Assembly: GCA_964389675.1 (NCBI GenBank)
Contig: CAYMEV010000009.1
Span: forward strand, 62,001 to 126,000
Direction: 5' to 3'
From: an uncultured Candidatus Sumerlaeota bacterium
Lineage (GTDB): Bacteria; CAYMEV01
Length of the DNA: 64,000 nt
The notes under the pieces were generated by a model. That model had not been told where the DNA came from, did no database searches, and saw only the letters and a list, made by a program, of their open reading frames with translations. Below, one piece after another: positions 60,505 to 64,000 of this stretch; the first letter of the stretch is position 1; the number at the start of each line of letters is the position of its first letter. The translations under genes and the position numbers were made by a program.

Positions 60505-61602
60505 CTATCTTTGCATTGATTCTACATAATCTGGAAACAGGTATTCAATCAGCTTAAAAAGAAGTCCGGCTGAATGGCTCTTGTCATCCTTGTCAAGCCG
60601 GTTGACATTGATAATTATTACTGCGTTTTTTAACGGCATATAAAACATCTCAGAAGAAAATCCAAATATTGTGCCGTTATGACCCCAGAAACCGCCTATA
60701 TCAAGTATTCCAAGGCCATATCGTACCCATTCAGGGCTTTTGTCCATCGGCAATGCCTTCATTTGCTGTTCATGAGTTTCTGCTGTCAGCAGAGACCCGT
60801 CATAAAGCGCCTGGACAAAAATCCACATATCGCTCATACATGATATTACCGCACCACCTGTATGTGGCACTGAAGGATTAAGCTCAGTTACATCCCTGAA
60901 ACTGTCATTTTCGAAAGAATATCCCCTGAGTGTGCCCGGGAGGGTATTTACAGTCGGGTATACTGTTTTCTCAAGCCGAAGTGCAGAAAATATATGCTCA
61001 TCAAACTCTGATTCAATGGAATTTCCCGTCACCTTTTCAATAATAAGCCCAAGTATACTGTAGTTGACATTACTGTAGACAACCTTTTCACCAGGGGTAA
61101 AAAAGCTGTCTGATTTCATTCCGGACATTTCGACAGCTTCTGAAATCGAGAATTCCATATCAAGATCTTCATACCATTTTGAAAGGAACTCATGGTCGGC
61201 AAAATCTGTAATTCCTGAATTCATATTTAACAGCTGCCTTATCGTTATAATATCTGAGTTCGGAAATTCGGGCAGATATTCTGAAAGGCTGTCATCCAGG
61301 CAGATCAGCCCTTCATCATGCATCTGCAGAATTCTCAGGGCTGTAAATGTTTTTGAGATGCTTGCAATACGGAATGGCTGATTTATTTTGCGAATTATGT
61401 TATTGTCTATATCAGCAAACCCGAAAGCTTTATGGTAGTTCATTTCTCCATTGATCCATATCAGCACTTCTGCACCCGGTATATTATTAGAATCTATATA
61501 AGTCTTTATAATTTCATCTAAAGGATCCACATTGTCCCTTTTTTGCTTCTGGCATGAACACATCATAAGGAAAATAGAAAATATAATCAGTATATTTTTC
61601 AT
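60505..61602 (-). CDS. serine hydrolase (beta-lactamase class C / D-Ala peptidase family) lipoprotein
   Basis: FRIASISK (SxxK), LLNMNSG, YSNVNY, WGHNG. Confidence 0.9.
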   Translation of the reverse strand: MKNILIIFSIFLMMCSCQKQKRDNVDPLDEIIKTYIDSNNIPGAEVLIWINGEMNYHKAFGFADIDNNIIRKINQPFRIASISKTFTALRILQMHDEGLICLDDSLSEYLPEFPNSDIITIRQLLNMNSGITDFADHEFLSKWYEDLDMEFSISEAVEMSGMKSDSFFTPGEKVVYSNVNYSILGLIIEKVTGNSIESEFDEHIFSALRLEKTVYPTVNTLPGTLRGYSFENDSFRDVTELNPSVPHTGGAVISCMSDMWIFVQALYDGSLLTAETHEQQMKALPMDKSPEWVRYGLGILDIGGFWGHNGTIFGFSSEMFYMPLKNAVIIINVNRLDKDDKSHSAGLLFKLIEYLFPDYVESMQR

Positions 61603-61643
61603 TAACTGCCCCTTTCCGGCTTTTTTATCCGCTTCTATAACGT

Positions 61644-63368
61644 CTATGATGACAGGTAGGAATCAAATACAAGCCTTTTATTCCCAAGATGTTCATATCT
61701 ATAATCTCTGTACCTGTTCACTCTTGAAAGTATTATATCCAGATTCTTTCTTTTTTTAAGAATTATTTTAATGCTTTCAGCACTTATTTCTATTCTTCCT
61801 GCATTGGAGAGGCAGGTATCAAAGATTTCTTCATCTTCCATATACATATCCATATCCCTGATAAAAAGCCTGTATATATTGTGCGAAAGAACTGTCATTA
61901 AAAAATCAAACCTGACATCAATATCCATCGATAAATAATCCTTATTGAGATGAAAAAGCATAATCTGCTTTTTTACCGGTTTTTTATTCAGGTATTTCTC
62001 AAAATATATCTGTGCTATTCTCTTCTTTTCAGTAAAAAAATCGTTTGTCAGAATTGATACCTTTGCTGAACTGTTCCTGTACAGGATATTAAGGTGCCTG
62101 AGCTTATGCTCTACCGGACTGTCTATTGGATTATATCCCGGATATAGAAGCTTCTCTTCATATACAAATATTTCAGGATTTCTTTCTTTGGAATTTTCAT
62201 ATAGATGAATATGGCTCATCAGAGGCAGATCAAGGTCCTTTCCAGTTGTCTTCCCGCCTGCCGTGGGATAAAACCTGTAGAACCTGATTCCATGCCTGTT
62301 CAGCTTTCCGAGATTTTCATGATCTGCCAATGAATAGTCAAAAGCCATGTATTTTGCAAAACTTTTTTTATCCTCAGAACGGCCGTACAGTTCTGCAAAC
62401 ATAAAGGCTTCCCTGTACAAATCCGGATAACTGCCCGGGTCTTTATACAGATCAATTATCTCCGTTTCGCTGTCATAGGAAAAAACAAGCAGTCTTTCTG
62501 TCAGCTGCTTTTTGCTGTATTCTGAAGGCATCCTCCAGCAGGGTATATTTATGGTATCTATGGTCACATGGCTCCCTAAAAGGCCCTTTTTAAGCCATAA
62601 TGAGTGCATCTTGACCAGGAGATCAAAAGTATATTTATTTTGCAGCTTCTCAGAATAGGATGTAAACCAGTATGGTCTGGGAAGGACTGATAGCCCTGCA
62701 AACAACCCCAGTCCCCTGTCCATGGAAAAAAGCTCTTCAGAGCTTTGCCTGTTCAGTTTGGACAGTTTCAGCGCAAGAAATGACATTATTATAGACATTT
62801 TTGAAAATCCGGGCATATCAGGCAAAATAGAATCATTTATGATTTTATCTATCCCGTATAGCTTAACATAGGGTATTAAAAGAAGTATACCGATATTTGA
62901 GCTTTGAAAGGCCTCCGGGGAAAAATCCAGGCTTATGCTGACTGACTCTTTTACAGCAGTTTTTTCAGACCTCTTTCTTTTTTTAAGCTTCTGAAAGCCC
63001 TCTTTTTTTAATAATCTGTAGCAATAGCTTTCTGATACCACACAGCCCCTTGCATCAAGTATGGACTTTATCTCCTGGATGGAGAAACCCTCTTTCCTCA
63101 GTGAGATAATCTCCTTCTTTATGTCATCGCTTATCCTTTTTGTTCTCTTTCCGGGTGATTTAACCTTGAAAAAATAATCATCCCGGGGATTAGTTTTCAA
63201 AAAAGCCTTGAATTCTCGCAGAAGAGAATAGAAAGATGACTGAGTATAGCCATATTTTTCTGCTACAACGGATGCAGGCAGATTATTCAGGTAATACTCC
63301 CTGAGTGCTTCATATTTCTTCTGTGAAGCGCTTCTGTATTTTCTGAAATATTCTTTCGGCTGAACCAT
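61644..63368 (-). CDS. DDE-transposase-derived protein, probably catalytically inactive
   Basis: HTH QKKYEALREYY..VAEKYGY, second HTH SESYCYRLLKKEGF, MDRGLGLFAGL, TID, AFD, ILTND; Y-x2-R-x3-E region reads YFEKYLNK; no terminal inverted repeats seen. Confidence 0.7.
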   Translation of the reverse strand: MVQPKEYFRKYRSASQKKYEALREYYLNNLPASVVAEKYGYTQSSFYSLLREFKAFLKTNPRDDYFFKVKSPGKRTKRISDDIKKEIISLRKEGFSIQEIKSILDARGCVVSESYCYRLLKKEGFQKLKKRKRSEKTAVKESVSISLDFSPEAFQSSNIGILLLIPYVKLYGIDKIINDSILPDMPGFSKMSIIMSFLALKLSKLNRQSSEELFSMDRGLGLFAGLSVLPRPYWFTSYSEKLQNKYTFDLLVKMHSLWLKKGLLGSHVTIDTINIPCWRMPSEYSKKQLTERLLVFSYDSETEIIDLYKDPGSYPDLYREAFMFAELYGRSEDKKSFAKYMAFDYSLADHENLGKLNRHGIRFYRFYPTAGGKTTGKDLDLPLMSHIHLYENSKERNPEIFVYEEKLLYPGYNPIDSPVEHKLRHLNILYRNSSAKVSILTNDFFTEKKRIAQIYFEKYLNKKPVKKQIMLFHLNKDYLSMDIDVRFDFLMTVLSHNIYRLFIRDMDMYMEDEEIFDTCLSNAGRIEISAESIKIILKKRKNLDIILSRVNRYRDYRYEHLGNKRLVFDSYLSS

Positions 63369-63480
63369 ATTTAATCTATATAATTACAGCCGAAAAGGTC
63401 AATATATTTGTATATTCAGTTATTTTTTCTTGTTTTTTTTTTAACACAGTATATTTTTTAGCTGAAATACGGGCTATATT

Positions 63481-64000
63481 ATGAAAATTGAAAAGATTTT
63501 ATTGATCAATCCGCCATACAGCTATGAAAAACAGCTTGGCTTTCTATCGCACAATTCCCCAAAGGTACCTCCAATGGGGCTTTTATCCATAGGTTCCTAT
63601 GCTAAGCATAATGGATATTCTGTCAGGATACTGGATGCCCAGACCCTTAATCTGAATGACAATGACATTTTGACCGAAATCAAATCCTGCAGGCCTGATC
63701 TTGTAGGGTTTACAGCCGTTACACTTAATATATCCGATGCATCACGCCTTGCAAAGAAGATAAAGGATAATTATCCCGGAATAATTACTGTAGTTGGCGG
63801 GATCCATGTAAGCGCACTTCCGGAAAAGACACTGGGAAAATACCCCTATTATGATTATATTGTACTGGGGGAAGGTGAAATAACCTTTTATGAGCTTCTA
63901 AATGCTCTTAATCAGGACCTTGATATCCATAATGTTGCAGGGTTAGCCTACCTTGATGAACATGGCAGATATTTCAGCACCGGAGCAAGGAAATTCATAG
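63481..64000 (+). CDS. cobalamin-binding radical SAM protein, N-terminal part (runs off the window)
   Basis: Hand translation MKIEKILLINPP..PPMGLLSIGSY..ILDA..PDLVGFT..VVGGIHVS..GEGEITF; not in ORF track. Confidence 0.85.
   Translation, partial: MKIEKILLINPPYSYEKQLGFLSHNSPKVPPMGLLSIGSYAKHNGYSVRILDAQTLNLNDNDILTEIKSCRPDLVGFTAVTLNISDASRLAKKIKDNYPGIITVVGGIHVSALPEKTLGKYPYYDYIVLGEGEITFYELLNALNQDLDIHNVAGLAYLDEHGRYFSTGARKFI

Follow-up and report, generated by a model that had tools for sequence, protein, structure and literature searches.

A single-copy relative of IS4/Tn5-like DDE transposases, probably domesticated, in an uncultured Candidatus Sumerlaeota bacterium

We analysed 64,000 nucleotides (nt) of DNA from an uncultured Candidatus Sumerlaeota bacterium (contig CAYMEV010000009.1, positions 62,001 to 126,000; the whole stretch is hereafter the window). 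Near its end, a gene on the minus strand encodes an intact protein of 574 amino acids (aa), P0001. The original prediction saw in this gene a candidate domesticated transposase. Our analysis supports that reading: the catalytic Glu and the ends of the element are lost, the gene is a single syntenic copy, and selection has kept the protein. P0001 is probably a domesticated (exapted) protein with a host role, derived from an IS4/Tn5-like DDE transposase. The comparison draws on two genomes: G000, the genome of P0001, a 3.57-Mb metagenome bin (58 contigs, 93.8% complete), and G001, the bin of a sister species (270 contigs, 91% complete), which carries the ortholog P0002 (570 aa).

The gene, its fold and its catalytic positions

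The locus comprises the following features, in window coordinates (HTH, helix-turn-helix).

61644..63368, minus strand: coding sequence of P0001, transposase-derived protein, stop codon included; 574-aa open reading frame, uninterrupted
63204..63317, minus strand: HTH1, residues 18-55, with the recognition-helix stretch YGYTQSSFYSLLREFK; HTH_28, E 4.5e-4, 20.7 bits, below the gathering score of 25
62994..63161, minus strand: HTH2, residues 70-125; HTH_32 over residues 70-120, E 4.7e-4, 21.1 bits, below the gathering score of 33.7
61773..62885, minus strand: Tn5-like transposase body, residues 162-532; it includes the N-core, where the MDRGLGLFAG block lies, the RNase H-like core, the beta insertion and the former YREK helix
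62556..62558, minus strand: D271 (GAT), in VTID, first catalytic Asp column; kept in P0001, Glu in the ortholog
62337..62339, minus strand: D344 (GAC), in MAFD, second catalytic Asp column; kept in P0001, Ser in the ortholog
61983..62006, minus strand: YFEKYLNK, residues 455-462, former Y-x2-R-x3-E; R458 changed to K (AAA) and E462 to K (AAA)
63373..63402, minus strand: sigma-70-type promoter-like site from a consensus scan, TTGACC-18-TAGATT (alternative TTGACC-16-TATAGA)
63369..63480, no strand: divergent intergenic region between the P0001 gene and the radical SAM gene, 112 nt
61603-61643: gap between the P0001 gene and the serine hydrolase gene, 41 nt
60505..61602, minus strand: serine hydrolase, Beta-lactamase family, lipoprotein-like N-terminus; PF00144, 9e-51
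63481..64000, plus strand: 5' part of a B12-binding radical SAM gene, 480 aa in full, extending beyond the window end; PF02310 and PF04055

The P0001 frame contains no stop; in each of the five remaining frames there are 23-47. The sequence details first noticed by eye all lie where they were placed: two HTH-like regions, the MDRGLGLFAGL...WFTSYS block (MDRGLGLFAGLSVLPRPYWFTSYS, residues 216-239), VTID, MAFD, ILTND (residues 439-443) and YFEKYLNK. The interval originally assigned to the gene, 61644-63402, also takes in the TTGACC hexamer at 63402-63397. The flanks of 41 and 112 nt, the serine hydrolase gene downstream on the same strand and the divergent radical SAM gene were likewise found as described. 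The content of guanine and cytosine (GC) of the gene (37.7%; 40.9% at third codon positions, GC3) matches that of the genome (40.0%) and of the neighbouring genes.

A homology search with P0001 returned 629 proteins at E <= 1e-3 among 8000 scored candidates. P0002, which has no Pfam domain on record, was the closest homolog among the matches listed, at 49% identity. Of the 120 matches listed, 118 are 33-39% identical to P0001 over 98-100% coverage, measure 577-653 aa and all carry PF01609 (DDE_Tnp_1), some together with PF13701. A HMMER search of 1.84 billion representatives placed P0002 at 6e-174 and the next match at 2.7e-84. Homology between P0001 and this parent family is full-length (E about 1e-107), with identical domain order. 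Most of the PF01609 homologs sit on contigs of ~2-3 kb, as is typical of repeated elements. The PF01609 gathering score (23) was passed by 4/4 active relatives tested (36.5-40.9 bits); no DDE Pfam family was listed for P0001 at E <= 1 or for P0002 at E <= 0.01. None of the active relatives tested reached the NCBIfam cut-off of an insertion sequence (IS) family (best IS1380, 34-46 bits vs 180), so the parent is an unclassified IS4/IS1380-like family that is not named in the NCBIfam library. The IS481 NCBIfam model matched only the N-terminal part of P0001 (1.5e-8).

The AlphaFold2 (AF2) model of P0001, built on a 60-sequence alignment, had a predicted local distance difference test score (pLDDT) of 86.2 and a predicted template modelling score (pTM) of 0.79. 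The HHpred/Foldseek-type check proposed at the outset gave Tn5 transposase as the top Foldseek match (4dm0_A, E 5.7e-7). With VIA-align, model residues 162-532 were aligned to Tn5 1mm8_A over 323 residues (Z 16.9, root-mean-square deviation (rmsd) 4.8; Tn5 chains Z 15.8-16.9), and PiggyBac transposase came next (Z 13.6). Neither P0001 nor the family profile retrieved a transposase from the PDB sequences (best E 0.025, the HTH of ribosomal protein S15), so the link between P0001 and Tn5 comes from fold comparison only. Family homology and the predicted fold together indicate that P0001 descends from a Tn5-like IS transposase.

Residues 14-124 of the model gave a weak match to Tc3 1u78_A (Z 6.7, rmsd 8.8, 96 residues aligned) and a weak match to Pax 6pax_A (Z 6.7, rmsd 9.7), with a score in the range that the tool calls common. 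HTH1 and HTH2, each with a Pfam match below the gathering score, together weakly resemble a paired-like bipartite DNA-binding domain. A PHROGs search of P0001 yielded N-terminal matches at the HTH level only, and PADLOC assigned it no defence family; a PADLOC match of the ortholog to Csx19 (E 0.0086, no stretch passing) was treated as noise.

Alignments of 20 and of 60 sequences give the family motifs as NLDFTTIPYWG (first Asp), YLVFDSKFT (second Asp) and RKYSRRWLVEK (Y455, R458, E462). Of the 156 full-length family members counted, 153 have the first D, 150 the second D, 154 the Y, 146 the R and 147 the E. At the same columns, P0001 reads D271, D344, Y455, K458 and K462, and P0002 reads E, S, Y, K and R (YYNKFILR). 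The third acidic position, which the original prediction had called eroded, is therefore occupied by K462, and the Arg of the motif is also Lys. The Glu of YFEK had been named as a residue that might fill the catalytic position, but E457 aligns two residues past the Tyr, outside the catalytic column, and is Asn in P0002. The model's secondary structure is consistent with an RNase H topology: the first core strand (267-279) contains D271, D344 closes strand 340-344, and position 462 closes helix 448-461, which follows the beta insertion. Codon 462 is AAA in G000 and AGA in G001, which is compatible with one ancestral Glu-to-Lys change and then Lys-to-Arg. Judged by these residues, a standard DDE transposase in both species is not possible.

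The parent insertion sequence family and the missing ends

Scanning species-representative genomes confirmed 224 loci of the parent family; the 80 retained are labelled as many bacterial phyla and Thermoplasmatales archaea. At least 8 copies lie in OZ252053.1, the chromosome of a Saprospiraceae metagenome-assembled genome. The 7 copies compared are identical over about 2065 bp, and 5/7 have perfect 5-bp direct repeats at their borders (duplications were examined in this one multicopy genome). Across 34 loci, 65 ends fit one 34-nt inverted-repeat consensus, consisting of CAYRGATTTTCAYGGTAA, ~9 variable nt and ACGTAnTT (or ...CATGTA...CCCTAATT). The ends are bipartite: CAYRGATTTTCAYG, then ACGTA or CCCTAA ~12 nt further in. 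The left end lies ~280-330 nt before the ATG and the right end ~36-97 nt (mostly ~50 nt) after the stop. These alignments indicate that the parent is a real, active IS family of ~2.07 kb with defined ends.

A third, internal copy of the inner half of the end (e.g. TTTATCACGGTAATAATAATACGTAAT) finishes at or just before the transposase ATG and follows the end variant of its own element (examples among loci L007-L079: L028 2699-2732 and 2973-3000; L032 2713-2746). The internal site may be one at which the transposase binds over a leaderless start and so regulates its own expression.

The HTH1 recognition stretch tracks the type of end in 33 active loci: it reads FGYTYRGFTT where the ends are CACGG...ACGTA and GYTLSSFYSL where they are CATGTA...CCCTAA. 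The two types are cleanly told apart by residue 47 (T in 21/21, Y in 12/12), making residue 47 and the HTH1 stretch a candidate protein-DNA specificity code for the family. P0001 and P0002 carry the second ("type B") form of HTH1, SSFYSL with Y47. They also have the HTH2 stretch SESYCYR in common with the active type-B element L007, whose end is CATAGATTTTCATGT...CCCTAAT. From these stretches, the DNA-binding domain of P0001 and P0002 looks close to that of active type-B elements.

The P0001 gene itself has no such ends. Searches by protein and by family profile each gave one match in G000, and G001 likewise holds one; the multiple near-identical copies with defined ends that would mark a mobile element were not found in G000, where no family-type end stands clearly above shuffled genomes. 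With the all-ends matrix, the best score in the G000 assembly was 16.8 bits (maxima of shuffled genomes 21-28; median of true ends 31). The type-B matrix gave 19.8 bits (shuffled maxima 15.7-19.1; true ends minimum 20.5, median 37.4). The top genome hits of the core matrix (C4:80130, C6:56108 and C1:148520) are attributed to chance and fall inside long open frames, and several hits of the inner matrix resemble reverse-complemented contexts of a ribosome-binding site and ATG.

At the locus, the end matrices scored -0.2 to 10.8 bits, against medians of 25.6-37.4 for true ends. No meaningful inverted repeat brackets the gene, the best pair being 74% complementary and located on the two neighbouring start codons, which confirms the early observation that the flanks have neither terminal inverted repeats nor a target duplication. 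Active elements have flanks of ~50 and ~290 nt, where the locus has 41 and 112 nt. No internal transposase site was found in 63369-63480 (inner-half best 1.4 bits vs 14-21 in 7/12 control sites); a stretch from the -35 to the ATG that resembles the active internal site by eye (ACCTTT...GTAAT) was unsupported by the matrix scan.

The ortholog P0002 lies at G001 C21:4603-6312, with a divergent radical SAM gene and a downstream hydrolase gene likewise. Synteny, another of the checks suggested with the original prediction, thus extends to the three-gene arrangement common to G000 and G001; genes outside the trio differ on both sides. The shared arrangement and the GC match point to vertical inheritance of the P0001 gene. 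A metagenome contig, L090, encodes a protein 100% identical to P0002 in the same gene order and is therefore the G001 species again. No third ortholog was found: a metagenome scan with the alignment of P0001 and P0002 gave only L090 and four active relatives at ~36%, and one with P0134, a relative described below, found nothing. Contig pieces 99+% identical to the locus came from 4 runs of 4 studies, with one G>A difference, and no joints or rearrangement were seen at the locus in these pieces (contigs, low cover). Copy number, synteny and the lack of family-type ends show that the P0001 gene is immobile.

Selection and the putative operon

Proportions of synonymous (pS) and non-synonymous (pN) differences and the corrected non-synonymous distance (dN) were obtained by Nei-Gojobori counts between G000 and G001, for the three genes and for segments of P0001 and P0002.

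Transposase-derived gene: 49.8% aa identity, pS 0.74 (saturated), pN 0.33, dN 0.43
Radical SAM gene: 76% aa identity, pS 0.713, pN 0.139, dN 0.154
Serine hydrolase gene: 67% aa identity, pS 0.752, pN 0.199, dN 0.231
Residues 1-145: 57% identity, dN 0.326
Residues 146-265: 59% identity, dN 0.337
Residues 266-350: 32.5% identity, dN 0.68
Residues 351-440: 36% identity, dN 0.72
Residues 441-500: 52% identity, dN 0.363
Residues 501-574: 54% identity, dN 0.346

We also compared P0001 with the consensus of 118 active members, taking a conservation of at least 90% across the family as the threshold for a strongly conserved column. In HTH1, P0001 is 54% identical to the consensus (active mean 61%) and keeps 10/10 strongly conserved columns. 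In residues 266-350, it is 21% identical (active mean 80%) and keeps 15/49 (lowest active member 42). The divergence is therefore concentrated in the catalytic half, as had been noticed from the sequence. HTH2 keeps 11/15 strongly conserved columns in P0001 and 9/15 in the ortholog.

The two genes differ by a nucleotide p-distance of 0.41 and by five indels, all in frame and all within residues 309-390. In a neutral simulation with substitutions only and half the corrected distance on each lineage, 0/5000 replicates kept an open frame (mean 20 stops); at 0.05 per lineage, 40/5000 remained open. A recent decaying insertion with a dN/dS near 1 had been considered as a possible alternative; what we found is a syntenic ortholog, pN of 0.33 against pS of 0.74, and intact frames in both species. 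These comparisons indicate protein-level selection on the gene dating back to before the two species separated, with constraint relaxed, not absent, in the former catalytic core. Purifying selection appears strongest on the putative bipartite HTH, the N-core and the C-terminal part.

Two variants of the G001 type, P0002 and P0270, differ at 5/570 residues. All five lie in 293-383, in the former catalytic core, and so match the relaxed core constraint seen between species.

The original prediction had placed a TTGACC promoter against the ATG. The site is present, and the TTGACC and ATATATAGATT blocks are common to the upstream regions of G000 and G001 at the same distance to the ATG; the scan itself was not significant, since the region contains 11 promoter-like sites vs 7.3 +/- 3.0 in shuffles, and taken alone it is weak evidence. 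Another upstream block, TATAGATT, is, like TTGACC, kept upstream of the ortholog. With 4-6 nt between the -10 and the ATG, the P0001 start is most simply read as that of a leaderless or near-leaderless mRNA. No terminator-like site was found in the 41-nt gap before the hydrolase gene; in G001 the spacing is 35 nt and the order unchanged. The arrangement suggests that the P0001 and serine hydrolase genes are probably co-transcribed. An A-rich run, AAAAAAAAAACAAGAAAAAATAA (gene strand), lies at window positions 63418-63444 in the divergent intergenic region; it is partly kept in G001 and was skipped as a repeat in read mapping.

Origin and possible roles of P0001

According to the alignments, an IS of ~2.07 kb would have inserted between the radical SAM and serine hydrolase genes before the two species split. 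It would then have lost both terminal inverted repeats and its ~290-nt leader, as well as the catalytic Glu and the Arg of the motif, positions that are now basic in both species. The two Asp positions would no longer have been held from then on: G000 would keep both by chance, and the sister species has Glu and Ser there. P0001 could now act as a sequence-specific DNA-binding protein devoid of catalysis, probably an oligomer through its retained Tn5-like body, and would probably be expressed from the conserved promoter as the leaderless first gene of an operon with the hydrolase. Its most likely role would be that of a host regulator or an architectural protein; host regulation proper we propose tentatively. 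The roles guessed in the original prediction, a transcription factor or a repressor of cognate IS elements, remain candidates; searches of G000 and G001 revealed no cognate IS.

Several points weigh against a domesticated host protein. The high AF2 confidence in part reflects the family alignment and not the sequence of P0001. Two Asp are left in the G000 copy, and by sequence alone residual metal binding or nicking may be possible. The promoter was recognised by its consensus, and promoter-like sites show no significant enrichment in its region; a search for an RNA run containing the locus listed none. Because synonymous distances are saturated, omega is bounded and not measured, at roughly <=0.2 overall and <=0.45 in the core, and at non-synonymous sites the gene evolves 2-3 times faster than its neighbours. 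Scans of G000 with the end and inner-half matrices found no DNA target for P0001. The gene is present in only two genomes, so that synteny and selection rest on one species pair, and both assemblies are metagenome bins that could have dropped copies of a multicopy IS.

A different form of domestication, which we consider unlikely and which would have its target outside the genome, is that of a genome guard: a dead transposase that keeps end binding and oligomerisation and protects its host from incoming elements of its own family. It would do so, if at all, by occupying the inverted repeats and the internal start-codon site or by forming inactive mixed complexes with the incoming transposase. 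The HTH1 (SSFYSL) and HTH2 (SESYCYRLL) stretches are nearly those of active type-B elements such as L007, and HTH1 has all of its 10 strongly conserved columns. Constraint extends beyond the DNA-binding domain to the Tn5-like body as a whole. The host genome has no matching site, so there would be no resident target if specificity is retained, and no active copy of the family was found in G000 or G001, although the family occurs across many bacterial phyla and in Thermoplasmatales archaea. However, the absence of a cognate IS from two metagenome bins is weak evidence, since such bins often lose repeats. The literature matches listed include no bacterial precedent, the columns changed in HTH2 (4 of 15 in P0001, 6 in the ortholog) may mean that specificity has shifted, and steady purifying selection is harder to explain by sporadic invasions. 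A guard therefore stays beside a host regulator of shifted specificity, because the DNA-binding domain is type-B-like, yet no such site exists in the host. Were the less favoured of the two true, P0001 would provide heritable immunity against its own IS family, sequestering incoming ends or poisoning their transposase.

It is improbable that the gene is a slowly decaying, functionless relic, with a frame left open by chance or because stops would be polar on the hydrolase. The loss of catalytic residues and ends, a dN 2-3 times that of the neighbours, the position upstream of a probably co-transcribed hydrolase gene and the clustering of all five differences between the near-identical G001-type variants would fit such decay. 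Against it stand full-length frames in both species at a p-distance of 0.41, which no neutral replicate matched, and 5/5 indels in frame. Constraint on the frame only is insufficient, because 50% identity (57-59% in residues 1-265) was held while synonymous sites became saturated.

That P0001 is still a recombinase, with the G000 copy using D271, D344 and another acidic residue (e.g. E457, on the same helix and five residues before 462) or a partner at diverged ends, is hardly credible. In its favour, the G000 copy keeps 2/3 catalytic residues and a fold predicted as intact. Against it, the ortholog, which is under the same selection, lacks all three residues and has Asn at 457, the gene is single-copy, syntenic and free of flanking inverted repeats, 34/49 strongly conserved core columns have changed, and neither joints nor rearrangement can be seen in the 99+% identical pieces from 4 runs of 4 studies (contigs, low cover).

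A domesticated protein with a host role, the reading we prefer, can be set beside known systems. Residues 162-532 have the Tn5 fold in common with the Tn5 (IS50)/IS4 superfamily, and the positions of the D, D and Y-x2-R-x3-E helix match. Unlike that superfamily, P0001 lacks a PF01609 match, has Lys for both Glu and Arg and carries an extra, putative paired-like double HTH at the N-terminus, and its gene is present in one copy with no inverted repeats or target duplication. With its parent family it has in common full-length homology, domain order and type-B HTH recognition stretches. The active members differ from it in having 34-nt repeats (CAYRGATTTTCAYG...CGTA or CCCTAA), the internal site, D-D-E and short contigs, none of which the P0001 gene has. 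The Tn5 inhibitor Inh (PDB 1b7e; Z 13.1 against the P0001 model) is also transposase-derived and non-transposing, and P0001 could likewise interfere through oligomerisation. The gene of the element itself gives rise to Inh as an N-terminally truncated form, which has no end-binding domain and keeps the catalytic residues, whereas P0001 keeps its N-terminal DNA-binding domain as the best-conserved part, has lost catalysis and is encoded by a fixed host gene.

Transposase domestication is well documented in eukaryotes, and in prokaryotes it is known mainly for Y1 RAYTs, TnpB-derived TldR and Cas12, and Cas1. The literature matches listed concern domesticated DDE transposases of eukaryotes and, for prokaryotes, RAYT/TnpA-REP and regulators derived from TnpB; among them there was no report of a domesticated bacterial IS4/Tn5-like DDE transposase. 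RAYT domestication is argued from a single-copy, vertically inherited, housekeeping-like pattern (PMC5581495), and the P0001 gene shows the pattern described there for RAYT/TnpA-REP (Y1). TnpA-REP has been called the first prokaryotic domesticated transposase (PMC8266576). In TldR, from TnpB (PMC10705468), and in the eukaryotic DDE proteins ALP1/ALP2 (PMC7282668), catalysis is lost and the protein retained, and P0001 is similar. P0001 belongs to a different enzyme class from RAYT and TldR, and neither a REPIN-like repeat population nor a guide RNA was seen. ALP1, PGBD, Pgm-like proteins and PiggyBac derivatives are eukaryotic, whereas P0001 is bacterial.

The locus would offer a clean bacterial case for a full-length IS4/Tn5-like DDE enzyme, with an active parent family of known, defined ends. 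The orthologs are syntenic and appear to be under selection, and the catalytic loss can be placed before the species split. With the 34-nt ends, the internal site and HTH variants that match them, regulator and guard could be told apart directly.

Other degenerate lineages in the family suggest that this was not a single event. A quick maximum-likelihood tree was built from 49 members; in it, the P0001 and P0002 pair (Shimodaira-Hasegawa-like approximate likelihood ratio test (SH-aLRT) 99, stem 0.78, tips 0.63 and 0.72) is nested in a clade of active members (SH-aLRT 99, tips 0.07-0.4). The degenerate-motif members P0122, P0125 with P0128, and P0130 lie elsewhere, and the tree requires at least 3 changes of the "degenerate" label. 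The placement of P0134 beside the P0001 pair is unsure because of its very long branch. P0122, P0125, P0128, P0130 and P0134 come from contigs of 17-63 kb and not of ~2 kb. The tree suggests repeated immobilisation in the family, with degenerate members in at least 2 other parts. If a guard function were true after all, the at least 3 independent degenerate lineages on long contigs would mean that it could be a recurrent bacterial strategy.

The lineage comes from marine or sediment metagenomes. Among 40 relatives of G000 (GTDB 232 species representatives), 1 belongs to the same genus (G001) and 39 are related at the domain level only, so that the G000 lineage appears almost alone among those species-representative genomes. 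A partial 16S rRNA gene lies at G000:C7:144814-145697 (model positions 9-902), near the end of the fetched C7 stretch.

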